The notes beneath the pieces are model-generated. The model was not told where the DNA came from. It did no database searches and was given only the letters and a program-made list of their open reading frames with translations. From Azolla caroliniana (lineage: Eukaryota; Plantae; Polypodiophyta), in contig JBHGNT010000006.1 in the NCBI GenBank assembly GCA_043228905.1, forward strand, positions 10,354,001 through 10,418,000: a stretch of 64,000 nt of DNA. Direction: 5' to 3'. This document shows positions 30,001-64,000 of this stretch, piece after piece. Each line of letters starts with the position of its first letter. The first letter of the stretch is position 1. The translations under genes were made by a program, and so were the position numbers.

Positions 30001-30600
30001 AAAAGGAAAGGGAACGGATGGCATTGGACAAGGAGCCAGAGAGGAAGAAAGAACCAACAAAGGGGGAGACAAGAGGAAGAAGGAAGCCGAGCCAACCGAA
30101 GGAGTCGGCACATCCGAAGTGTTGAAAAACAGTGCTCGGCCACAACCGAGGAATAGGATCAACTCACAGAAAACAGGAAATACACAATGCACGAAGGCAA
30201 TAGAGAGAAGAGTGCACAGGATGTTTTACGTGGAAAACCCTAAATGGGAAAAAACCACGGGAGTCCTCAAACTCCAACTATCACTATGAACAGAGATGTA
30301 CAATGGTGAAGCTACAAGGCAACAACCTTGAGCTCACTGTCTTCGCCACAGGCGGCGGTAATACACAGAGGCAACGACCTCTTCGTCTTTCTCACTCACT
30401 CTCTCTCTCTCTCTCGGCTGCTCTCTTCACTCTCTCTAAGTGGAAAACAGAAAACATGAGCAGCAACATAAAACTGTTTGCCCTAAGTCATATTTATACA
30501 CATATGACTTTCCGGCTATTTACAAATATAGCCACAAGGGCCCTTGGCAAACATATTCACAAATATGTCCCCGCATCCGGATCTCTCTCCAGGTACATAC

Positions 30601-30875
30601 ATCATCCGGCTCCGTAGCCGGGTCTTCATCATCCGGCTCCGTAGCCGGGTCTTCAACATCATCCGGCTCCGTAGCCGGGTACTCTTCATCCGGCTTCATG
30701 CCGGGTCTTCAACATCATCCGGCTCCGTAGCCGGGTACTCTTCATCCGGCTTCATGCCGGGTCTTCAACATCCGGCTCCGTAGCCGGGTCTTACATCATC
30801 CGGCTCCGTAGCCGGGTACTCTTCATCCGGCTTCATGCCGGGTACTCCTCATCCGGCTTCATGCCGGGTACTCTT
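30601..30875. repeat. Tandem array of catccggct(ccgta/tcat)gccgggt units in the D LTR (also 35556-35830)
   Basis: About a dozen 23-27-bp units read directly in both LTRs. Confidence 0.9.
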
Positions 30876-30968
30876 CATCCTCCGGTTCCGTAACCGCAAC
30901 CGGGCTTGCCGTCATTCATCTCCGGACATCCCATCCGGAGGGACCATAAATCCCAACAAACTCCCCCT

Positions 30969-33900
30969 TCACTTCGGCATGGGATGTCTCTCCAATCCGA
31001 TCCTCTTCCGGCATGCTTCCAGCTTGTCGGGTGTAAGTACCTTAGTCAGCATATCCGACCCGTTCTCGTCCGTGTGGATCTTCGTCAGCACGAACTCCTT
31101 GTCTTCTATCCTTTCCCGGATCCAGTGATATCTTCGCTGGATGTGCTTCGTCCGGGAGTGATAGGCCGCGTTCTTCGCAAGGTGGATGGCACTCTGACTG
31201 TCGCAGTAGAGTCGGTATTCCTCCTGCCGGACACCGAGCTCTCTAATGAAGTCCTTCATCCATATTATTTCCTTGCCGGCTTCAACAGCCGCCATGTACT
31301 CCGCCTCCGTGGTTGACAGTGCAACCGTCTTCTGCAGCCTCGACTGCCATGAAACAGCTCCCCCTGCATACGTCATCACATACCCTGATGTGGACCGGCT
31401 GGTATCTGCATCAGCCGACATATCCGAATCGGTAAATCCATCGAGTTCGGGCTTACCGGAGCCGAATCGGAGGCACATGTTTGCTGTGCCCTTCAGGTAG
31501 CGGAGTATCCATTTGACCGCGTTCCAATGCTCTTTGCCGGGATTGCTCATGTACCGGCTCACCACTCCGACTGCATATCCTATGTCCGGTCGGGTACACA
31601 CCATCGCGTACATCAAGCTCCCGACGGCAGAGGCATATGGTACTTTCATCATGTCCTCCTTCTCAGCCTTTGTCTTGGGGCTTTGCTTGCTGGACAGCTT
31701 GCAGTTTGCCGGGAGTGTTGACCCCACCGGTCTTGCTTCCGACATGTTGAACCGGTGAAGCACCTTTGTCACGTACTTCTCCTGTGACAACCACAACTGC
31801 TTCTTCTTCCGGTCCCGGATGATGTGCATCCCTAGTATTTGCCTCGCCGGACCCAGGTCCTTCATTGAGAAGGTTCGGTGAAGAGCCTTCTTCAGCATCC
31901 GTATCTTGACCTGGTCCCGTCCGACGATCAACATGTCGTCCACGTACAGGAGGAGTATTAGAAAGTCTCCTCCTTCGAACTTCTTCACAAACACGCAGTG
32001 ATCGGACTGCGTTTTGTGGTACCCTTCGTCGGTCATGAAGGAGTCGAACTTCCGGTACCACTGCCGGGGAGCCTGCTTCAGACCGTAGAGGCTCTTCTTC
32101 AACTGGCATACCAGGTGCTCCTTCCCTTTCTTCTCGAATCCTTCCGGTTGCTGCATGTAGATCTCTTCTTCGAGGTCACCGTGAAGGAATGCCGTCTTCA
32201 CGTCCATCTGTTCTACCTCGAGGTCCATGCTTGCCGCTATGCTCAGCACCGTCCGGATGGAGGTCATCTTCACTACCGGGGCAAATATCTCGTCAAAGTC
32301 GACGCCCTTCTTCTGCTGGAACCCCTTCACCACGATCCTGGCTTTGTATCTCGGGGGGTTTCCGGCATCTCCCGGTTTCAGCTTGAACACCCACTTGTTT
32401 CGAAGTGCCCGCTTTCCTTTCGGCAACTCCACAAGTTCATATGTGTGGTTCTCATGCAGGGAATCCATCTCCTCCTGCATGGCACTTAACCACCTGCGGC
32501 TATGTGTGTCAAGCTCTGCTTCTTCAAAATTCTCCGGCTCCCCCTCGTCGGTTAGCAGCACGTGCTCTGGTTCCGGAAATCTCCGGGGGGCCCTTCTCTC
32601 TCTTAGAGGATATCTCCGTTCCGGAGCTTCGGTAACCGGTTCTTCCGATTCTTCTTCATCCGAATCCATTTCGGGATCGGGGCCGGTTCCGGTATCATTT
32701 TCGTCTTCTTCGGCCGGTTCTGTTTCTTCACCGTCTTCGGCCGGATCCTCGAGTGCTAACCGGTCTCTTGCCGGTCGGGACTGCTCCTTGTAGAGTTGAT
32801 CCTCACCGGTCGACTTGGAGCTCTTCATCTTCTTCTCCGACTCCCAGTCGGCGAGTGTCTTGTCCTCCATGAAGATGATATCACGACTCCTGAATATCTT
32901 CTTGTCGACCGGGTCCCATACTCGGTAGCCGAACTCATCGTCGCCGTAACCGAGGAATATGCATGGCCGGGTCTTTGGATCTAGCTTTCCTCTCCGGTCC
33001 TTTGCCACATGCACGTATGCGAGACACCCGAACACCTTCAGATGCCGGTAGGATACTTCCTTACCAGTCCATACTCTCTGCGGCGTGTCTCCGTCCAAAG
33101 GTACTGAGGGTGATCTATTTATCACATATGTCGCCGTCGACATTGCCTCAGCCCAAAACCCCTTGGGTAATTTCGCATGCGCCAGCATACTCCGGACCCT
33201 CTCCATTATGGTCCGGTTCATCCTCTCGGCCAGCCCGTTCAGTTCCGGCGTCTTCGGCACAGTAAACTCGAGCCGGATTCCCATCAAACGGCAATACTCC
33301 TCAAATTGCCCTCGGTATTCTCCTCCGTTATCCGCTCGTATCGCTTTCAGCTTCTTGCCGGATTCTCTTTCCACTCTCGCGTGGAGTTCTTTGAAGACGG
33401 ACAATACTTGGTCCTTTGTCTTCAACGGTGCCATCCACAGCTTCCGGCTGTGATCATCTATGAATGTTACGAAGTACTGGGCTCCGCCATGTGACTTCGT
33501 TTCTACTTGACACACGTCAGTGTGCACCAGCTCCAATGGTGCGCTACGTCTCGTCGGTGGCCTTGAGTGGAAGGAGGTCCGGTTTTGCTTACCGGCCAGA
33601 CAGTCGGTGCACTTCTCCAGGTGCACATGCTTCACTGGAATAAGGTTGTCTTCTGCAAGCCTCTTCATCCCCTTCTCACTCATGTGGCACAGTCTCTTGT
33701 GCCATAGCTCACCGGCAGTGTCAGCTGCCACGTTCAGCTCCTCCGGACATAGTCGGGAATTCATCAGGTACAGTGTGTTGACCTTCCGGGCCCGAGCTAC
33801 TATCAAGCTCCCCTTGCTGAACTTCATGACACCGTTCCGGATGCTACCCGTGTAGCCTTCATCGTCTAGCCTCCCGGCCGAAATCAGGTTCAATCGAACC

Positions 33901-35042
33901 TCCGGAACGTGTCGAACATCCTTCAGCAGCATTTTGCATCCGGTTGATGTCATCAGCCACACGTCTCCTATGCCGGCAATCCGGCATGTACCTTCATTTC
34001 CCATCCGGACACAGCCGTGCTCACCGGCTATGTAGGATGAGAAGTATTTCTTCTCCGGGGTCAGGTGGAACGACGCTCCGGAATCGACCACCCAGGTCAT
34101 CTCTGCACCGGCAAGGTTCAGCTCCCTCTCTTCGGTAATGAGCATTATTTCTTCTTCACTTGCCGCGAGTGCCGTCGTTCCTTTCCGGTCCTGCCCTCGC
34201 CGATCCGGACCTCTCCGGCCCGTGGCTCCCCGGTATGCACCGTTTCTCTCCGGTGACTTCTTCGAATCGGTGTCGTCGGCTCCGTTGTCTTTTCGGTAAT
34301 GCCGACAATTCTTCCGGAAGTGCCCCGGCTTCCCACAGTGGAAGCATGTGGGCCTTCCTCTTGACTGCGACCGGGTCCCCGACTTCTCCCGTCTTTGCGG
34401 ACTCCGGTTCCATTGTCTTCCCCGATCCGATTCGGTAAGCAGCGCCTTCGGGTCGGAGGCCGGTTCTTTATCTCTCCGACGCGCTTCTTCGTTCAAAATA
34501 CTTGTCTTTACCGTTTGTAGAGACAAGTTATCTTCGGTGCAGGAGGTGCTGAGAGTCACCACCAAGTTCTCCCAGCTTTCCGGCAATGTACACATCAGGA
34601 TGATGGCTTGCATTGCATCCTCCAACGGGAACTTGATCGCCGCAAGCTGGTTCACGAATCCCATGAACGTGCTTACGTGTTCCACCATACTCTCGCCGTC
34701 CCGGTACTTGAGGTTCACTATCTTCCTCATCAGGGAGGTCCGGTTCAACGCATTCTTCCTCTCATAGAGGCCCGACAGCTTCTTCCACATCTCATAGGCG
34801 TTCGTATCGTTCGCCACATGTTGCAGGACACTTACATCGACATATTGCCGGATCGTCGCTACGGCTTTCCGGTTCAGGAGCTTCCACTCCGACTCTATTA
34901 CCCCCTTGGGTATCTCGGCATTGTCGATCGGTTCGTACAGGTCTCGGACAATGAGAAGGTCTTCCATCTTTATCTTCCAGTCGGCGTAGTTCTGCGCATT
35001 CAGCACCATCATCCCCGGCTGCCCGCTGCTGCCGCCTTCCAT
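30969..35042 (-). CDS. Copia D gag-pol polyprotein, uninterrupted, 1357 aa
   Basis: Single ORF from ATG 35042: CFHCGKPGHFRKNC, VVDSGAS, HKRLCH..CTDC, VHTDV/RADNGGEY/AERMNR, LYVDDML, FTDSD..TEAEY..CDSQSA. Confidence 0.95.
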   Translation of the reverse strand: MEGGSSGQPGMMVLNAQNYADWKIKMEDLLIVRDLYEPIDNAEIPKGVIESEWKLLNRKAVATIRQYVDVSVLQHVANDTNAYEMWKKLSGLYERKNALNRTSLMRKIVNLKYRDGESMVEHVSTFMGFVNQLAAIKFPLEDAMQAIILMCTLPESWENLVVTLSTSCTEDNLSLQTVKTSILNEEARRRDKEPASDPKALLTESDRGRQWNRSPQRREKSGTRSQSRGRPTCFHCGKPGHFRKNCRHYRKDNGADDTDSKKSPERNGAYRGATGRRGPDRRGQDRKGTTALAASEEEIMLITEERELNLAGAEMTWVVDSGASFHLTPEKKYFSSYIAGEHGCVRMGNEGTCRIAGIGDVWLMTSTGCKMLLKDVRHVPEVRLNLISAGRLDDEGYTGSIRNGVMKFSKGSLIVARARKVNTLYLMNSRLCPEELNVAADTAGELWHKRLCHMSEKGMKRLAEDNLIPVKHVHLEKCTDCLAGKQNRTSFHSRPPTRRSAPLELVHTDVCQVETKSHGGAQYFVTFIDDHSRKLWMAPLKTKDQVLSVFKELHARVERESGKKLKAIRADNGGEYRGQFEEYCRLMGIRLEFTVPKTPELNGLAERMNRTIMERVRSMLAHAKLPKGFWAEAMSTATYVINRSPSVPLDGDTPQRVWTGKEVSYRHLKVFGCLAYVHVAKDRRGKLDPKTRPCIFLGYGDDEFGYRVWDPVDKKIFRSRDIIFMEDKTLADWESEKKMKSSKSTGEDQLYKEQSRPARDRLALEDPAEDGEETEPAEEDENDTGTGPDPEMDSDEEESEEPVTEAPERRYPLRERRAPRRFPEPEHVLLTDEGEPENFEEAELDTHSRRWLSAMQEEMDSLHENHTYELVELPKGKRALRNKWVFKLKPGDAGNPPRYKARIVVKGFQQKKGVDFDEIFAPVVKMTSIRTVLSIAASMDLEVEQMDVKTAFLHGDLEEEIYMQQPEGFEKKGKEHLVCQLKKSLYGLKQAPRQWYRKFDSFMTDEGYHKTQSDHCVFVKKFEGGDFLILLLYVDDMLIVGRDQVKIRMLKKALHRTFSMKDLGPARQILGMHIIRDRKKKQLWLSQEKYVTKVLHRFNMSEARPVGSTLPANCKLSSKQSPKTKAEKEDMMKVPYASAVGSLMYAMVCTRPDIGYAVGVVSRYMSNPGKEHWNAVKWILRYLKGTANMCLRFGSGKPELDGFTDSDMSADADTSRSTSGYVMTYAGGAVSWQSRLQKTVALSTTEAEYMAAVEAGKEIIWMKDFIRELGVRQEEYRLYCDSQSAIHLAKNAAYHSRTKHIQRRYHWIRERIEDKEFVLTKIHTDENGSDMLTKVLTPDKLEACRKRIGLERHPMPK

Positions 35043-37161
35043 TTTCTGTGTTGCCGTCGCTCTGATACCACTTTGTTGAAAAACAGTGCTCGGCCACAAC
35101 CGAGGAATAGGATCAACTCACAGAAAACAGGAAATACACAATGCACGAAGGCAATAGAGAGAAGAGTGCACAGGATGTTTTACGTGGAAAACCCTAAATG
35201 GGAAAAAAACCACGGGAGTCCTCAAACTCCAACTATCACTATGAACAGAGATGTACAATGGTGAAGCTACAAGGCAACAACCTTGAGCTCACTGTCTTCG
35301 CCACAGGCGGCGGTAATACACAGAGGCAACGACCTCTTCGTCTTTCTCACTCTCTCTCTCTCTCTCTCTCGGCTGCTCTCTTCACTCTCTCTAAGTGGAA
35401 AACAGAAAACATGAGCAGCAACATAAAACTGTTTGCCCTAAGTCATATTTATACACATATGACTTTCCGGCTATATACAAATATAGCCACAAGGGCCCTT
35501 GGCAAACATATTCACAAATATGTCCCCGCATCCGGATCTCTCTCCGGGTACATACATCATCCGGCTCCGTAGCCGGGTCTTCATCATCCGGCTCCGTAGC
35601 CGGGTCTTCAACATCATCCGGCTCCGTAGCCGGGTACTCTTCATCCGGCTTCATGCCGGGTCTTCAACATCATCCGGCTCCGTAGCCGGGTACTCTTCAT
35701 CCGGCTTCATGCCGGGTCTTCAACATCCGGCTCCGTAGCCGGGTCTTACATCATCCGGCTCCGTAGCCGGGTACTCTTCATCCGGCTTCATGCCGGGTAC
35801 TCCTCATCCGGCTTCATGCCGGGTACTCTTCATCCTCCGGTTCCGTAACCGCAACCGGGCTTGCCATCATTCATCTCCGGACATCCCATCCGGAGGGACC
35901 GTAAATCCCAACACGAAGAGGTCGGAACAAGCGGCAGCGGCGGTAGTGTCAAGAAGGATAGAGTCGACCGGAAGAAAATGGCCAAGACCCGGACGTGGTC
36001 CGGTGTGGTGAAGGGCCTGAAACCAGAAGACGAGTTGGAGAACACCGACTCGGACAAGAGCTTGAATGCATCGAAGGAAACCGATTTGGTTTAAGATTCG
36101 GAGAAGATGGATCAACTAAAGGCCAAGCGGACACGGACGTAGTGGAAGTCGATGCCAACACAAAAGAACCGACAGGTTGACAAGCGTCGGAGTCGCAGCA
36201 ACGAGGGAGCTAAAATGGGCCTGTTGAGCAGACAAGTCGACCGAGGAGGTCGAGGTGCACAGAACTAGAAGGGTCGCAGCAAACAAGACCGGACCGAACG
36301 GGGAACGCGAGCGAGGCGGAGCAACGCTAGAAGGAGCCGGGTAGAAGAATCGGTTGCCGCGGACACTAACACCACGATCTGACCTCAAGTTGAGTTTGAG
36401 GGGGAGTGTTGAGTGAGCAAGCTCAACCAGATCCGGATCGGTTGAATAAGCTAGAGCTGGATCAACATCCGAAAGGATGAACCGGATCGGTATCCGGAAA
36501 CAACCGACTAGATCGGGGAGCCGGATTTGAGTGGGAACCGGAAGCCTAGTAGTAGCCTAGACTACTAGGTAATCATTGTCTCATAGTTAGTGTTAGTCGC
36601 ACGTGTGAGCATTGAAGTACCTGTCAGTACTTCTGTCAGTCCTTTATGGACTTGTATAAATAGTGTTGTTTAGCACGTTGTATGTACAAAGTTTTAGAGT
36701 TATTTTTGAATATAGTCTATGTTCTGCTCTCTCTGTCTCTCCTGTATATACTCTCTGTGTTAAGCTTCTCCATTAAAACCTTCATCTCATTTTCTGTTGC
36801 TATCCGACTGAGCCGGTTCTGTCTGACGCTTCCGCACATTAACATTCACAAGTTACATATTCTCCATGACTATGAGTCTTCACATTCCCCAACTGAGAGT
36901 GGTTGTGGGAGTTATTTAATGAAGAGAGAGGGTGACTATATATAAAGCACCCTCCTCATACTTCATAAAAAGTTGGTTGTGACTCCTTGTAATGCTACAT
37001 TTTTGTATTTGCTATTTTACTTGTGAATATACATCCTTCTTCTTCTTGAGTATTTCATTTCTCTAGTTGATCTATCTTGTGTTTCTCTTATCTTCTCTCT
37101 TTTCTCTCACACATAACACACATCTCTTCCGCTACACAAGAATCATATCCGATTCTTTACA

Positions 37162-50386: not shown

Positions 50387-53263
50387 TGTCGTGCCTTTCG
50401 GCTCCGGATCGTTTGCGTGAGTCGAGTGGTTCCCACCCGACTCACGCAAACGATCCGGAGCCGAAAGGCACGACATAGTTGGTGAACCCGACGTGAAGAG
50501 GGGTGGTAAGGAGATGGAGAATCAACAAGAGGCAATGAGCATAACGATGATGATGATGTTCGAGCGGATGCTACAAGAACAACGAGTGATGTCGGAGATC
50601 ACGGGGCAGTAAAGCGGCTCGTACAACGAAACGGACAATTCAACGGAAACGATGTGTCATGCTATCTACGTGACTACAAGGCGGAGATGATACGATGTGG
50701 GATACCGGAAGGATTGCAAGTGACATCCTTCAATCGGGTGGCCACGGATGAGCTACAAGAGAGAATCTACAAGATACGGCAACAAAATTCGACATGGGGG
50801 TCATTCGAAGAAGCTTTACGAGAGGCATATGATTACAAGAGATCGAAGGGAAAAGATCGGCGAGAATTCGACGAATGGGTGGCGTTGGAGAAGACTCACC
50901 GAAGTGCAACGCAAGCGTTCCTAGAGTTCGAGCATCGTTTTGCTTGATTCTCGGAGCGGGAACGAAGATTGGTGGGAGAAGATAAAGTCTTAATGTTCGT
51001 AAGATCGATCGATCGGAAAGAAAGGATGGACATTGGGATCGAACTCGAAGATGATGACGGTGCGAACGGCCTTACCGAGGATTGGGCCAAAGTCGAAAGG
51101 GTATGCCGGAGACATGATGAGAGGAAGATGAGAATCTTGTCAACGACATGGCCCATGAAGGATGGTCGATTGAGGAAAAACGATGAAGCCAATATGAAGG
51201 CCGAAATACAACATGATGGTACCACGGGAGAAAGAGTGGAACAAGACACCCACTCGTCTTGTGAAAGAACGATGGCGAAGGATAAGGCCGATAATTCAAG
51301 TGTAGAAGGAAATTTCGGGATACAAGTGCCCGAGACATCGGGTCAAAAAGGGGTAAGCATAATAGATGTTTGCATAATTGATGCAGATAAAGAGTGTGAA
51401 GCGGATGTGATTAAGGAGGTAGCCACAAAAGACGAAATCGAATCGGAGGTGGCTATGGACGAATCAATGGCGGATTGCCATATCGAGACTTCCCCACCAC
51501 TGATTCCAGAGACTCCGGCGGTTGCGATCGAAAGGCAACGTGAGACCGAAGAGACGGAAGGTGGCGGAGAGAAAACGAATGTCGAAGCCGACGAATACGA
51601 TGAAGAGATAGCCGAGAAGAATGCTAAGGGTGAAACTACGAAAGAAGGTAATACCGAGGATTCATGCCAACAATATCTAGAGACTTCGGCGGTTGTGTCC
51701 GAGAACCAACGTGAGACCGGAGAGACGGGAGATGGCGGCGAGGAAGGTAAAGTCGGAAGTCGGTTCGGATGGAAAATGATCCATCCGAAATTCCAATCTA
51801 AAAGAAAGTGCGACAATGCGGAGGTCGGGTCTACGACGGGAGAAGCGCGTAATACAGAGCACGCTCTACGGCGAATAAAGAAACGCGTGTTATGGCGAAT
51901 AAAGAAGCACGCGCTACGGCGAGAAAAGAAGCATGCATTACAACCACACGAGGACCGAACAATGAGCACATATCGGAGGACCTACGTGGCGAACAACGGA
52001 AAGAAGTGCCGAAAGTCGAACCGGACAAGGCAGGTGAAAACGAAGAAAAGAAAGCAAATCCGGACGAAAAGAAAAGAAAAGAAACCGACCCGAAAGAGCA
52101 CTGAATCGGTAAAAACCGATCAACCGAGTCCGGATCGACCGAATACAAATCGGAAAGGAAGCCGAACTAAACGAAAGACGATCCGACGAGACCGAATCGG
52201 AAGTAAGCTAATCCGACTAAACCGAAAATCCGAAAAGAAGTCGAGATTGATGAAGACAAGAAAGAGGCCAGTAAAAGACACTACCACGAATGACAAGGGC
52301 CAAGAATATGACGAGAGAGAACAAAGAATATGGTGGATCGGATGGCGACAATGGTTCGGGTGGAAAGAATGGATGTGCTCCAAATGGAGAGACAAAGTCA
52401 ACATAACAAGAGAAGTCGAGGGTACTTCGAGCCGGCAACGAAACCAATCGGGTAGAGACCGGACGGAGGAGACTAACAAACACCAACAACTTCGGCACAT
52501 ACCGGAGGATGTGCGGGTAACTGTGTCGTGCCTTTCGGCTCCGGATCGTTTGCGTGAGTCGGGTGGGAACCACTGGGGTTTTGGACTAGGAGGAGGAAGA
52601 ATTTGAGGCTAATCTAATTATGAATATCAATAGATTATAAGAAAGAGATATAGAAATTTCGTGAATCCCACGAGTGTATTGTATTCGATTAATCAATATT
52701 TAGATAAGAATATGTATTTAGATTGAAAGAAAGATATAAGAAACTTGTGAATCCCACAAGTATAGATTATATTATTTTCGTGAATCCCACGATTATATTA
52801 ATTGGTTGGTGTTTTCGGAAATATATCCAATTTCCCAAATATTTTTCACACACAATTACATTGTGCTTCCCATCCTTATGTAGTGATGAGGAAGTCTTAG
52901 TAATCCATGCTTTTTCTCTAACTATAGACCCCATGCTTTTCCTATAGATAGACTATATGCTTTATCTAAAGTGATCATGCTTTTTCTAACTTGTGCGTTT
53001 TTTATCATGCACGCTAGATGTGTATGTGTAGCTTTTTCTTTTGTTATGCGTTTTTCTAATGTTTATCCTAGCGTGAATTTACCTTTCTATGTGGGACATC
53101 TATGCTTTAACACTAATGAAATGCTAGTGTAATGGTAAGACATTACATTATTAACATGGAGGTGCAAGGTTCGAATCTTGCCCTATGCATGTTCCATTTA
53201 TTTTGCTATTTTCTTCTATTTCTTCATTTTTTATTGAATCTAATACTATATACGTTAAGAACA
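50387..53263. mobile_element. G: gag-only LTR element with inverted internal domain
   Basis: TSD GCGT (50383-50386 / 53264-53267). 38 bp of LTR terminus, then inverted U5 end, PBS-Trp and gag on plus, then aactg and a full LTR 52524-53263 in the opposite orientation. Confidence 0.85.
50515..52518 (+). pseudogene. G Gag plus acidic/basic tail, homologous to the H ORF
   Basis: MENQQEAM.., YLRDYKAEMIRCG, FVRSIDRKERMDIG, WWIGWRQWFGWKEW. Frameshift near 50605 and TGA at 50945. Confidence 0.85.
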
Positions 53264-58945: not shown

Positions 58946-60365
58946 TGAATGATAATTTCTAGCAAAGAAATAGGATAAGCCAGACAAATAGTCATAACAT
59001 TGTGTCATGATGTGAATATATCATGGGCAAACATTAATTGATATCATGATCTCACATCAATACCCCTCTAGACGTATGAGATGAGGTTCAAGATTAGGTT
59101 ACTATGGTAACACAAAGGTGTTTTAAAAACCATGGGGGTGACAAATGAAAGTTTTTCCCTGATCTCTATATCGATTTTTTCATGGCGGCTACCCGAGGCT
59201 CAACCATATATGTTTGCGTTATGAATAGTTTAAACACGAAAAGATGTTAACAATAAACTATGTCTCTGTGCCCACGCATGTCGTCTTGGCTCTTTAAGTC
59301 CTATTACGAGGACCTTGAAGTGCACTAGTACGTTACCCAACCTCAAGGCTCATCAATACAACGACATACCCCAAAGTGCAACCTAATGGTCAAACCACAC
59401 GAGCCCTCTTTTCGTAGTAGGCCCACGTGGCCCATCACATGGTTACATCATTACGAATGCCTTTCGTAATGATGATCTCATGGTGGCATCGTATCCATGT
59501 AATGAGGGTGGGATGTTGGATATATGTGTCAAAGGAGTGACCTCACATGAAGTGGGTCAAGCCCTACGTTGTCAACATCATTGTGACTATGATCATTTCA
59601 TTACGTAACGCAATCGAAGTGACCAACGGGGATGTAAACAAAAAAAATTGTTGAAAAAGGGATGGTGACTGTCATTCTCACAAAAATGTGAGGACGGACA
59701 CCAAGATCCTTTCCCCGAAAAGGATAATGTTCAACATACACAATCACGTAATATAAACTAATATATATTTATGTTTATCACATGTATACGATTAAATACG
59801 TATACACGTTGTCGTGCCTTTCGGCTCCGGATCGTTTGCGTGAGTCGGGTGGGAACCACTGAGGTTTTGGACTAGGAGAAAGAAAAATACAAATAAGGCT
59901 AGTAAAGAATACGTATAAAGAGTTATAAGATAAGAATCTCGTGAATCCCACGAGTTTAGTATATTTAGTCAATATTTAGGTAGTAAGAGAGAATTATTTT
60001 TAGCAAATTCGTGAATCCCACGAATATTTTAGATTGATTGATCATTATAGAAAAATAATCAACAAAAACTACAATGTGCTCCCCATCCTTATATAGTGAT
60101 GGGAGAGACTAAGCATAGCTACATGCTTTTTCTCATATGTTCATGCACACTAAATGTGCATGTGATGCTTTTCTAATCCTTGCTTTTATTTGCTAAATAT
60201 AGTGCTCATGCATGCTAGATGTGCATGAGTCACTTTTTAGTTGCTTGCGTTTTTCTATAAAATATTCACGCACTCTAAAAATGCATGATTTACCTTTTAA
60301 TAAAGGTAGGCGCAAATAAAGCAGTTATAGTTATTAAATCTATTTATAGAACACTAAAGATAAGG

Positions 60366-60419
60366 TAGCATAATGGTAAAGTTGAGGTTTGGCTACGTGG
60401 AGGTACAGGGTTCGAATCC
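60366..60419 (+). promoter_or_regulatory. Pol III type-2 A box and B box inside the H LTR (also 63106-63159; in G at 53125-53178)
   Basis: TAGCATAATGG fits TRGCNNARYGG and GGTTCGAATCC fits GGTTCGANNCC, 43 nt start to start. T4 at 60455-60458. Confidence 0.65.
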
Positions 60420-60483
60420 TGCCCTATGCACGTGATAAATATCTTGATATATTATTTTATTTATTTATATGTAATTAAATCGG

Positions 60484-62511
60484 TTATATTATTTTTACTT
60501 TTTCACGTAGTGTACGAAATACACTACGACACTCGCCCCCTCCGAACCCGCACATCCTCCGGTATGTGCCGAAGTTGCCGATGCTCGTTGTCTCCCCTTC
60601 ATCCTCCGTTTGTCCCGCTATGTCAACTTTGTCTCTCCATTTTGAGTAGACCCATTCTTTCCACCCGAACCATTGCCGCCATCCGATCCACCATATTCTT
60701 TGTTCTCTCTCGTCATATTCTTGGCCCTTGTCATTCGTGGTAGTGTCTTTTACTGGCCTCTTTCTTGTCTTCATCAACCTTGACTTTTTTCCGGATCGCT
60801 CTCGTCCGATCGACTTTCGGTTTGATCGGCTTCCGATCGGATTCGTATTCGGCCGAATCGGAATCGGTTGTTCGGTTTCGATTGAGTCGGTCTCCTTTTC
60901 AGTTGGCTTTCTTTTCCTCGTTTTCACCAACCTCGACCGGTCCAACCTCCGGTTGAGTCGGATTAGCTTCTTTCCGGATCCGTTTCGTCCGATCGGCTTT
61001 CGGCTAGGTCGGCTTCCATCCATATTCGCGTTCGGCCAAGTCAGACTCAGTCGATCGGTTTTGACCGAGTTGAGCCCTTTTCGGATCGGCTTTCTTTCGG
61101 GTCGTCTTTCGGCCGAATCCTCATTCGCCCGGTTCGGCTTTCGTTTGTGTCGTCTTTCGGTCGAATCCTCTTTCACCCGGTTCGGCTTTCTTTCGGTTCG
61201 TCTTTCGGCCGAATTCTCTTTTACCCGGTTCGGCTTTCTTTCGGATCGGAATCCCGTCCGGATCACCTTCCATCCTAACTGGCTTCCGACTTTACCTTTC
61301 TTGCCGCCACCTCCCGTCTCTCCGGTCTCACGTTGCTTCTCAGACACAACCGCCGAAGTCTCTAGGATTAGTGGGTAGGAATCCTTGGTATTATCATCCT
61401 CCGTTGTTTCACCCATAGCCATATTCTCGACTATCTCTCCGTCATACGCATCAGCTTCAACCTTTGATTTCTCTCCGCCACCTTCCGTCTCTTCGGTCTC
61501 ACGTTGCCTTTCGAATGCAACCGCCGGAGTCTCTAGAATCAGTGGTGGGGAAGTCTCGATATGGCCATTTGTCGTTAATTCGTCCATAGCCACCTTCGAT
61601 TCGATGTCATTTTTCGTGGCGACCTCCTCAATCAAGTCCTCTTTGCTCTCTTTCACTGCATCAATTATGCTTACCCCTTTTTCACCCGATGTTTCGGACA
61701 CTTGTATTCTGAAATCTTCTTCTACACTTGGGTTATCGGCCTTATCCTTCGTCGTTGTTCTTTCGCAAGACAAGAGGGTAGCTTGTTTTACACCCTCTTC
61801 CGTCGCACCATCATGTTGTATTTCGGCCTTCATATCGGCTCCATCGTTTGTCTTCAATCGACCATCCTTCATCGGCCATGTCGTTGACAAGATTCTCATC
61901 TTCCTCTCATCATGTCTCCGGCATACCCTTTGGACTTCGGCCCAATTTTCGGTAAGACCATTCGTACCTTCATCGTCTTCGAGTTCGATCCCGATGTCCA
62001 TCCTTTCTTTTCGATCGATCGATTTTACGAACATTAGGACTTTATCCTCCCCCACCAACCGTTGTTCCCGCTCCGAGAGTCGAGCAAAACGATTCTCGAA
62101 CTCTAGGAATGCTTGTGTTGCACTTCGGTGGGTCTTCTCCGATGCCACCCATTCGTCGAATTCTCGCCGATCTTTTCCCTTCGATCTCTTGTAATCATAT
62201 GCCTCTCGTAAAGCTTCTTCGAATGACCCCCATGTCGAGTTTTGTTGCCGTATCTTGTGGATTCTCTCTTGTAGCTCATCTGTGGCCACCCGATTGAAGG
62301 ATGTCACTTGCAATCCTTCCGGTATCCCACATCGTATCATCTCCGCCTTGTAGTCACGTAGATAGCGTGACACATCGTTTCCGTTGAATTGTCCGTTTCG
62401 TTGTACGAGCCGCTTTACTGCCCCCGTGATCTCCGACATCACTCGTTGTTCTTGTAGCATCCGCTCGAACATCATCATCATCATGTTCATCGCCTCTTGT
62501 TGATTCTCCAT
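60484..62511 (-). CDS. H Gag-like protein with acidic and basic low-complexity tail, 675 aa, intact
   Basis: Open from ATG 62511 through the PPT into the 3' LTR. The N-terminal ~200 aa align by eye to B gag (GQFNGNDVSRYL vs GRFSGKDATKYL; RFARLS in both; LTENWAEVQRVC vs LMTDWAAVKRVY). Confidence 0.85.
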   Translation of the reverse strand: MENQQEAMNMMMMMFERMLQEQRVMSEITGAVKRLVQRNGQFNGNDVSRYLRDYKAEMIRCGIPEGLQVTSFNRVATDELQERIHKIRQQNSTWGSFEEALREAYDYKRSKGKDRREFDEWVASEKTHRSATQAFLEFENRFARLSEREQRLVGEDKVLMFVKSIDRKERMDIGIELEDDEGTNGLTENWAEVQRVCRRHDERKMRILSTTWPMKDGRLKTNDGADMKAEIQHDGATEEGVKQATLLSCERTTTKDKADNPSVEEDFRIQVSETSGEKGVSIIDAVKESKEDLIEEVATKNDIESKVAMDELTTNGHIETSPPLILETPAVAFERQRETEETEGGGEKSKVEADAYDGEIVENMAMGETTEDDNTKDSYPLILETSAVVSEKQRETGETGGGGKKGKVGSQLGWKVIRTGFRSERKPNRVKENSAERRTERKPNRVKEDSTERRHKRKPNRANEDSAERRPERKPIRKGLNSVKTDRLSLTWPNANMDGSRPSRKPIGRNGSGKKLIRLNRRLDRSRLVKTRKRKPTEKETDSIETEQPIPIRPNTNPIGSRSNRKSIGRERSGKKSRLMKTRKRPVKDTTTNDKGQEYDEREQRIWWIGWRQWFGWKEWVYSKWRDKVDIAGQTEDEGETTSIGNFGTYRRMCGFGGGECRSVFRTLREKVKII

Positions 62512-62527
62512 CTCCTTGCCACCCGCC

Positions 62528-62545
62528 TTCACGTCGGGTTCACCA
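62528..62545 (-). promoter_or_regulatory. PBS (tRNA-Trp) of H
   Basis: TGGTGAACCCGACGTGAA, identical to the PBS of B and of G (50480-50497). Confidence 0.9.
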
Positions 62546-64000
62546 ACTGTGTCGTGCCTTTCGGCTCCAGATCGTTTGCGTGAGTCGGGTGGGAACCACT
62601 GAGGTTTTGGACTAGGAGAAAGAAAAATACAAATAAGGCTAGTAAAGAATACGTATAAAGAGTTATAAGATAAGAATCTCGTGAATCCCACGAGTTTAGT
62701 ATATTTAGTCAATATTTAGGTAGTAAGAGAGAATTATTTTTAGCAAATTCGTGAATCCCACGAATATTTTAGATTGATTGATCATTATAGAAAAATAATC
62801 AACAAAAACTACAATGTGCTCCCCATCCTTATATAGTGATGGGAGAGACTAAGCATAGCTACATGCTTTTTCTCATATGTTCATGCACACTAAATGTGCA
62901 TGTGATGCTTTTCTAATCCTTGCTTTTATTTGCTAAATATAGTGCTCATGCATGCTAGATGTGCATGAGTCACTTTTTAGTTGCTTGCGTTTTTCTATAA
63001 AATATTCACGCACTCTAAAAATGCATGATTTACCTTTTAATAAAGGTAGGCGCAAATAAAGCAGTTATAGTTATTAAATCTATTTATAAAACACTAAAGA
63101 TAAGGTAGCATAATGGTAAAGTTGAGGTTTGGCTACGTGGAGGTACAGGGTTCGAATCTTGCCTTATGCACGTGATAAATATCTTGATATATTATTTTAT
63201 TTATTTATATGTAATTAAATCGGTTATATTATTTTTACTTTTTCACATAGTGTACGAAATACACTACGACAACGTGATTACTTATGCATATATTTAAAAC
63301 AATTGTAACATCATATAAGAACCGAATGATATAAATCCAGATATGTAATCGAGGCGTATAGCCTCTACGCACAGGAAACATCCAAAAATGAGGGTGAATG
63401 TAATACACATTTCAAGTATTGACCTCTTACGTATACGACACCAATCGCATATCCTTTACATAGAAATCAAGGTATTGACCTCATACGCAAATGTAACATA
63501 TGTATGTGAACGTAATACGCAATTGAGACATTAACCTTGTACGCATACAATACAAATCACATATCAAATATATGTGGAATGAGGTATTCACCTCATACAC
63601 ATATGTAAACGTTTTATACAACGAATTAATTACCATGACATCGTATCCATGTAATGAGGGAGGGATGTTGGATATGTGTGTAAAAGGAGCAACCTCACAT
63701 GAAGTGGGTCAAGCCCTACATTGTCAACATCATTGTCGGTATGATCGTTTTGTTACGTAACGAAATCGAAGTGACCAATTGGGGATGTCACTAAAAAAAT
63801 TTGTTGAAAAAGGGATGGTGACTACGCCATTCTCACAAAAATATGAAGATGGCCACTAAGATCCTTTCCCCAAAAAGGACAACGTTCGATATACACAATC
63901 ACGTAATAAAAACTAATATATATTTATGTTTATCATATGTATGCGATTAAATACGTATACACGTGATTACATATGCATATATATGTAAATTGACAATGTG

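Follow-up and report, generated by a model that had tools for sequence, protein, structure and literature searches.

Among non-autonomous retrotransposons with long terminal repeats (LTRs), the described systems nearest to the element considered here are those whose only coding sequence is gag. Why such elements keep Gag, and whether the Gag of a satellite meets that of its helper, are questions raised in PMC4350172 and PMC7765848. The present analysis concerns an element, referred to as H, in a 64,000-nucleotide (nt) stretch of the genome of the fern Azolla caroliniana (GenBank assembly GCA_043228905.1, contig JBHGNT010000006.1, positions 10,354,001 to 10,418,000 of the forward strand). The whole stretch is called the window, and positions are given in its own numbering. 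The reading favored here, with a probability of about 60%, is that H is a recent copy of a high-copy, pol-less Ty3/gypsy satellite with a predicted two-lobed capsid and a predicted disordered tail, whose Gag is made, joins the particles of an autonomous family (family A), and uses the Pol of that family.

In the description by Chaparro et al. (2015, PMC4350172), TR-GAG1 has a 433-amino acid (aa) open reading frame (ORF) with a zinc knuckle and a 5-bp target site duplication (TSD); no internal repeats and no partner are reported for it. The 5-bp TSD is descriptive in that paper and lies outside its filter. The Arabidopsis TR-GAG AT5TE33540/ATCOPIA63 is likewise gag-only, with a 562-aa ORF, and is reported to have been shown to transpose (PMC8704663). 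Phygy is a lineage of non-chromovirus Ty3/gypsy elements with a 4-bp NCGN TSD, a primer binding site (PBS) for tRNA-Trp, and no extra domain (Neumann et al. 2019, PMC6317226). As presented there, it is described from Physcomitrella only, at 7.7–10 kb, and all members carry polyproteins. Helenus/Cassandra TRIMp3 elements are non-coding TRIMs (miniature retrotransposons bounded by terminal repeats) of 0.3–1.3 kb, in which LTR boxes are proposed to drive the genomic RNA (Kojima 2024, PMC10886601). Ty1 p22, as described in PMC4599808, is made by the autonomous element itself, in truncated form. Finally, the non-autonomous LTR families of sugar beet are reported to show template-switch reshuffling of LTRs and internal regions, tandem arrays, and 28 families with GAG/PROT only (PMC13570524).

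H lies on the minus strand at 59810–63271 (3,462 bp), with LTR termini of TG...CA. Both its 5′ LTR (62550–63271, minus strand) and its 3′ LTR (59810–60531, minus strand) are 722 bp long, and the former is of the type common to family A, with 94% identity to the LTR of A copy L074. The pair shares 99.3% identity, with five differences, every one a transition, which gives an insertion age of about 0.4 million years at 9e-9, the moss rate used in PMC7466625 and one not calibrated for this fern. Identical 4-bp TSDs (ACGT) flank the element at 59806–59809 and 63272–63275, and a paralogous empty target site at 63961–63964 has a single ACGT. The PBS (62528–62545, minus strand) follows a 4-nt spacer (62546–62549). 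A genomic tRNA-Trp(CCA) is complementary, over its 3′ end (+CCA), to this site at 18/18 nt. The polypurine tract (PPT; 60532–60543, minus strand) is the same tract that is present in A. H has a single 675-aa ORF (60484–62511, minus strand), consisting of a capsid, an acidic block, a basic block, and an Arg/Trp motif. Its final 48 nt, and hence its stop codon, are inside the 3′ LTR; the remaining two sense frames of the tail hold 28 and 26 stops. No CX2CX4HX4C (CCHC) motif occurs in the 675-aa ORF. Pfam searches of H and of its tail gave nothing significant and no match to protease (PR), reverse transcriptase (RT), RNase H (RH) or integrase (IN); Retrotrans_gag was reached on the ORF at an E-value of 4 only. 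The N-terminus of the protein aligns with the gag of B, a gag-pol element, at 32% identity across 150 aa (E 6e-23). In all of these respects the first-pass annotation of the window was accurate: the near-identical LTRs, Trp PBS, PPT and perfect TSD, the intact ORF ending within the 3′ LTR, the homology to B gag, the absence of a zinc knuckle, protease, RT and integrase, and a tail that is first acidic and then basic, as the net charge along the ORF confirms.

Copies of the family were sought across 523 Mb of genome, in which the exact LTR-end/PBS junction of H occurs 736 times. The first 100 of these junctions (contigs C1 to part of C4) were typed; in all, 160 junction or PBS places plus 20 places of a second family, F2, were examined, mostly on contigs C1–C6. 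Fifty-three of the 100 proved to be gag-tail elements, 42 were of gag-pol type (family A), and five were other. Median LTR divergence was 0.14% in gag-tail copies with both LTRs (n = 45, with 14 of the 45 pairs identical) and 0.25% in A copies (n = 29). With six tandem-array units left out, 38 of 39 gag-tail copies had a perfect 4-bp TSD, and all 38 TSDs fit NCGN, a pattern with a background frequency of 5.8%; the corresponding figures for A were 25/29 and 25/25. Of 49 gag-tail copies that have a PPT, 25 had an ORF open as far as that tract, as did 19 of 34 young ones. In full-length A elements (7.0–7.4 kb), a Gag-PR of 679 aa includes a CCHC knuckle and is accompanied by an RT-RH-IN frame that has no chromodomain; Pfam found neither a chromodomain nor an extra domain in the Pol of A copy L040. 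Among 28 full A copies, gag-PR was open in 21, pol in 15, and both in 12. The census thus upholds the earlier proposal of a recently mobile, multi-copy family. That annotation had also allowed that copies with this LTR might normally carry pol, with H a one-off deletion: 42 of the 100 do carry pol, but H is not a one-off. CpG targeting, another earlier claim, is real in the form of NCGN, but it is the published preference of Phygy (PMC6317226) and is also seen in A.

Some gag-tail elements occur in tandem arrays with common internal LTRs (L002–L005 on C9, L048/L049 on C1, L107–L109 on C3, and L078). Among L050, L083, L089 and L092, three copies at different sites or on different contigs are inserted at one and the same ACGT of another repeat, which looks like the end of an LTR, and L092 is inserted within an A/H-type LTR, adjoining a tRNA-like box.

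H and A share the LTR, PBS, PPT and the first ~100 gag codons. The first 300 nt of gag are 72–85% identical, and the likeness returns in the last 50–100 nt before the PPT. Because 42 of the 100 junction copies are of gag-pol type, the likely helper is one that has the LTR of H, not B. B had been suggested as the kind of element from which Pol is borrowed. Supply of Pol in trans stands, but B is rejected as its source for H, since the two have in common only the PBS, the PPT core and 5-bp termini; the search for pol-bearing elements with the same LTR led to A, which is closer. It is therefore likely that H borrows RT and integrase from family A. Signs of recent exchange are present in 2 of 53 gag-tail copies, L056 and L090, which hold exact A patches (127 and 138 nt), and in L156, where an A/H LTR end is joined to F2 gag.

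Within the capsid, the two lobes of H have different affinities. Residues 1–106 (62194–62511, minus strand), an N-terminal helix and the N-lobe, are of the helper A type, at 73–85% DNA identity to A, and residues 112–210 (61882–62178, minus strand) form a C-lobe of the type of a pol-less gag-tail clade. Over gag nt 300–660, DNA identity is 48–60% to A versus 70–82% to F2, a gag-tail family with its own 640-bp LTR and 102 exact junctions. No collinear pol was found in the 20 F2 copies fetched of these 102, 13 of which had both LTRs. Lobe trees and approximately unbiased (AU) tests were made with 20 chosen rows, all real copies. By its N-lobe H falls with A (support 98/99), by its C-lobe with F2 and a third set of elements, F3 (100/100), and a C-lobe grouping of H with A is rejected (p-AU 0.0024). 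H is therefore no simple deletion of A. It carries the LTR and N-lobe of its likely helper together with a clade-type C-lobe, and its gag is chimeric. A larger C-lobe tree, built by a quick method from the 58 of 77 rows that were long enough, placed 0 of 32 pol-bearing rows inside the tail clade.

The Trp PBS itself occurs 5,527 times in the genome. Forty of these places were chosen by order, with six skipped (including two known H-type copies): 28 had a pol-type gag, 11 a tail-clade gag, and one was unclear. The tail-clade elements of this sample are termed F3, and their LTR ends are common with B-like autonomous elements; B-like LTR ends thus accompany branches of the clade other than that of H. 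A pattern for the Trp-rich motif of the tail gave 574 hits. Among the 30 examined, pol was present within 1.5 kb upstream in none and the acidic block in 27. Neither blastn nor tblastn found an origin for the tail in the pol of A or B. One F3 element, L272 (G000:C1:6266944-6274943), has identical 681-bp LTRs and an open 1,421-aa ORF with a capsid, acidic repeats, and the Arg/Trp motif repeated in tandem at the end. L262 and L274 represent a fourth tail-bearing gag group, with capsid lobes outside the main tail clade. Spacers between LTR and PBS are long and family-specific in these elements (4 nt in H and A, 5 nt in F2, and 3–8 nt in B-like and other elements).

The capsid-like N-terminus reported in the first-pass annotation is supported by structure prediction. 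AlphaFold2 models residues 1–215 as a two-lobed helical fold with a predicted local distance difference test score (pLDDT) of 84. The top ten Foldseek matches and all seven VIA rows with Z of at least 8 are Gag-type capsids (Arc, dArc, copia, MOAP1, PNMA2 or Ty3), on which single lobes of the model superpose at 1.7–3.1 Å; Ty1 p22 and Drt2 are also among the fold matches. In the Atlas, Retrotrans_gag was assigned at 0.94, with only 128 of 256 features in common. Residues 210–605 are predicted to be disordered. They comprise an acidic block with ETSAV/QRETGETE repeats (aa ~215–410; 61282–61869, minus strand) and a basic repeat block (aa ~411–600; 60712–61281, minus strand). The latter is swappable among subfamilies, with at least three unrelated basic blocks alternating between one acidic block and the Arg/Trp motif. 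This motif (aa 605–625; 60637–60699, minus strand) is the clade's conserved C-terminal module; it contains two GW dipeptides, with Trp at every third residue, and lies in a low-confidence predicted helix (602–629, pLDDT about 44). A complex prediction for the A capsid with the Arg/Trp peptide, run without alignments, scored 0.01.

Codon models were fitted to copies with open ORFs (33 rows, filtered block by block). The ratio of nonsynonymous to synonymous change (omega), with likelihood-ratio test (LRT) values in parentheses, was 0.42 (34) for the N-lobe, 0.40 (28) for the C-lobe, 0.60 (9) for the first acidic half, and 0.35 (12) for the Arg/Trp motif, or 0.50 (6) for the motif when broken copies were included. 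The capsid of A gave 0.49, and shifted-frame controls gave 0.69–1.73, none significant. Recombination makes all of these omegas only approximate. Shared variants of the motif fall 8/9/24 at codon positions 1/2/3, with a slight bias in that the selecting pattern was looser at third positions. By these models, purifying selection acts on both capsid lobes and on the Arg/Trp motif. The frame leading to the motif is also maintained. For 48 copies, with three tandem units and two motif-less copies dropped, the distance from ATG to motif was in frame for 23 of 30 distinct lengths (p 1.5e-6, an optimistic value because the lengths share ancestry) and for 5/5 lengths seen at least twice, against 13 of 34 for LTR lengths as a control. 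Downstream of the motif, the reading frame is not conserved. With both kinds of test significant, the suspicion that the ORF might not be conserved can be set aside.

Database relatives of near length numbered 17, all unnamed, three of them A-like Gag-PR, and 115 further relatives were tail fragments. Two longer proteins matched, both without Pol domains. The few named members of the relative clusters are called "hypothetical protein", and querying the Atlas with the C-terminal portion of homologue P0001 brought no usable match.

Taken together, the favored reading of H as a satellite of A would work as follows. Pol II transcription from the LTR would yield a single RNA serving as both mRNA and genome. 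The Gag made from it would enter A-type particles by way of its A-type N-lobe and so gain access to A's Pol. The basic block and Arg/Trp motif may substitute for a zinc-knuckle nucleocapsid and help to package the element's own RNA in cis. Copying would then proceed by the established LTR cycle, primed by tRNA-Trp and served in trans by a Phygy-like integrase, most likely from A, and RT template switching in mixed particles could account for LTR and N-lobe capture as well as the recent A patches. When four sequencing runs were compared with the element, short pieces appeared in two runs of uncertain RNA nature, and the run that covered it fully is probably DNA.

Several results weigh against this account. 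About half of the gag-tail copies are broken. A young subfamily, with an internal region of 1,619 bp, is without the C-lobe that it once had, so spread does not require a whole capsid. The best Foldseek E-value was 0.05, no row came to 0.001 or lower, and Z values of 8–10 can arise by chance among helical folds. The second acidic half (omega 0.91) and the basic block (0.84) are indistinguishable from neutral, the motif is not significant within the H family when F2 is left out (0.53), and in the F3 copies L253, L255 and L291 the PPT is not preceded by an Arg/Trp motif. For the N-lobe, the converse test fails to reject a grouping of H with F2 and F3 (p-AU 0.08), and the mosaics could also arise by ectopic DNA recombination. 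A broader version is more tentative, and rather doubtful as a whole: that the gag-tail elements form an ancient, pol-less, capsid-hijacking clade, amounting to about a quarter of Trp-primed elements in this fern genome, which switches helpers by capture of LTR and N-lobe, its Gag thereby entering the particles of each new helper, and in which a disordered Arg/Trp tail replaces the zinc-knuckle nucleocapsid and favors its own RNA.

If H were an interfering particle, its tailed Gag would be selected for poisoning or outcompeting helper capsids, and the satellite RNA would be moved passively by the Gag and Pol of A. Conservation of both lobes and an N-lobe matching the helper would suit this, as would the young subfamily without a C-lobe; a bulky tail of 465–1,200 aa might be expected to disturb a lattice, and Ty1 p22 offers a precedent (PMC4599808), with such a role suggested, not shown, for TR-GAGs in PMC7765848. 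Yet A is itself abundant and young (42/100 junctions, median divergence 0.25%, 12 of 28 full copies intact), and selection through the satellite's own replication would favor a benefit in cis over harm to the helper, which leaves interference unlikely. Slightly less credit is due to the idea that the ORF is open mainly for RNA reasons (avoidance of nonsense-mediated decay, or packaging), with the tail as filler and protein function in the capsid part only. Here the frame is kept as the sequence drifts, at an omega of 0.84–0.91 over most of the tail; three unrelated basic blocks and internal lengths of 1.6–2.2 kb are tolerated, and the stop lies at the PPT or within the LTR in all subfamilies examined. 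The Arg/Trp motif, however, is conserved as protein in three families (omega 0.35–0.50, variants 8/9/24) and duplicated in F3, the frame is free after it, and the acidic-then-basic order is maintained.

Two further explanations are harder to reconcile with these data. GW hooks and Trp-rich membrane peptides are known kinds of motif, and the two GW dipeptides, the spacing of Trp at every third residue and the predicted helix at 602–629 could indicate a membrane-binding or Argonaute-binding module by which particles reach membranes or blunt silencing; with a helix pLDDT of only about 44 and no family match, this is improbable. Least probable is that H arose by plain internal deletion from a gag-pol element (A, B or one outside the sample) and that its open frame is a by-product of recent amplification. 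It would explain the LTR, PBS, PPT and 5′ gag in common with A, and the sample of 160 and 20 places comes mostly from six contigs. Against it stand a tail without counterpart in A or B beyond the last 50–100 nt, the rejected C-lobe grouping with A, the lack in the sample of any pol-bearing row with a clade-type C-lobe, a longer-protein search whose two matches have no Pol domains, and the significant selection and frame tests. A domesticated Gag gene of the Arc/PNMA type, expected as one fixed locus with no mobile cis-elements, does not fit the hundreds of young copies with distinct TSDs.

Two short motifs recur among these elements. A tRNA-like A-box/B-box module in U3 of the 5′ LTR (63099–63170, plus strand) is a copy, shifted by 2740, of that at 60359–60430 in the 3′ LTR, and is antisense to the element. 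It is kept, always antisense, in diverged LTRs of H, A and F2, scores 14.2 bits with the Rfam tRNA model (E 7.9, gathering threshold 29), and was not found in B; ARAGORN found no tRNA in the LTR boxes. The antisense boxes cannot drive sense genomic RNA in the manner proposed for Helenus. A first count (44/46 versus 5/31) had suggested that Pol III boxes were specific to satellites, and this was dropped when the LTR alignment showed a variant box in A. Of the earlier claim on Pol III boxes, the presence of box motifs therefore holds but not their distinctiveness for the satellite, given an antisense orientation, occurrence in A, and a sub-threshold Rfam score. The second motif is a hairpin with a 6-bp stem and an 8-nt loop just before the PPT (60550–60569, minus strand), common to helpers and satellites and seen in all tRNA-Trp-primed families examined (L035–L134, L165–L184, L245–L304, and B). 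Its stem shows compensatory changes, with A-T in 33 sequence types and G-C in 11 at position 3, and in 38 and 5 at position 5. It is likely to be a cis-signal for packaging or plus-strand priming.

Elsewhere in the window, G (50387–53263) had been listed as a second, diverged member of the family. Its membership is confirmed, but the copy is broken and rearranged: the frame shifts near 50605, a stop interrupts it near 50946, the internal region is inverted, and there is a terminal hairpin. Its TSD (GCGT) is intact. Inverted inside yet with its TSD intact, G may be an aberrant strand-transfer product. On the left it ends in an 89-bp palindrome, nearly perfect, made of the U5 end, and L149 has a similar fold-back at the PBS. 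The window also contains a Ty1/copia element (30120–35851) with an open 1,357-aa ORF and LTRs bearing GC-rich 26/56-bp tandem repeats, and a host fasciclin-domain ORF (810–1502) with its closest named homologues in Adiantum (58–60%).

Because this genome has young satellites that are intact, a helper that is identified and likewise intact, and N-lobes naturally exchanged between helpers, the question of why Gag is retained becomes directly testable. If the tail is indeed a zinc-knuckle-free packaging or condensate module, it would be a new Gag architecture, and a helper-switching clade would parallel, among retrotransposons, the satellite viruses that remodel the capsids of their helpers. The tail clade may also make up a sizeable, unannotated share of fern repeat content. 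H had been called the best candidate for an undescribed system; as a class it is not undescribed, since the published accounts cited above already cover elements with gag alone (TR-GAG), a preference for NCGN targets (Phygy) and LTR boxes that resemble tRNA (Helenus). No printed account of the selected long tail, of the old clade without pol, or of a helper's LTR and N-lobe being captured was found, in a search outside which lay Repbase, subscription journals and most supplements, so that a catalogued entry is possible.

Compared with these systems, H resembles TR-GAG elements as described in PMC4350172 in its length below 4 kb, its LTRs, PBS and PPT, its single Gag ORF without PR, RT, RH or IN, and its recent, multi-copy nature. 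It differs from TR-GAG1 as presented there in having no knuckle, a 4-bp NCGN TSD, and a repeat tail (465–1,200 aa in the clade) that includes an Arg/Trp motif under selection; its partner is identified, and its capsid is chimeric. The TSD, whose length is set by the helper integrase, is 4 bp and not 5 bp, so H is considered a TR-GAG-type variant and not a described TR-GAG family. AT5TE33540, like H, has an autonomous relative, but it is a Copia element highly similar to its partner, and its description (PMC8704663) reports no foreign tail or helper switch. The NCGN TSD, the Trp PBS and the lack of an extra domain published for Phygy match what is seen in A, B and the satellites. A is like Phygy in its 4-bp NCGN TSD (25/25 perfect TSDs), tRNA-Trp PBS, and lack of a chromodomain or extra domain, and unlike it in its fern host and its size of 7.0–7.4 kb, outside the moss range of 7.66–9.97 kb; A is hence called "Phygy-like", a likeness judged by TSD, PBS and domains. 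Helenus/TRIMp3 elements, as described, have an A/B-box module within the LTR, of which H holds a candidate counterpart, and share with H the occurrence of tandem arrays, whereas H is 3.46 kb long with a 675-aa ORF, and its box module is antisense and also present in the autonomous partner. Ty1 p22, on its published description, similarly consists of Gag only and could in principle join helper particles, but H moves as a lineage of its own and has both lobes as well as a long tail. Finally, the coding parts of the sugar beet families are treated in their description (PMC13570524) as remnants; in contrast, the ORF of H is under selection and belongs to an old clade of its own that extends across several LTR types.

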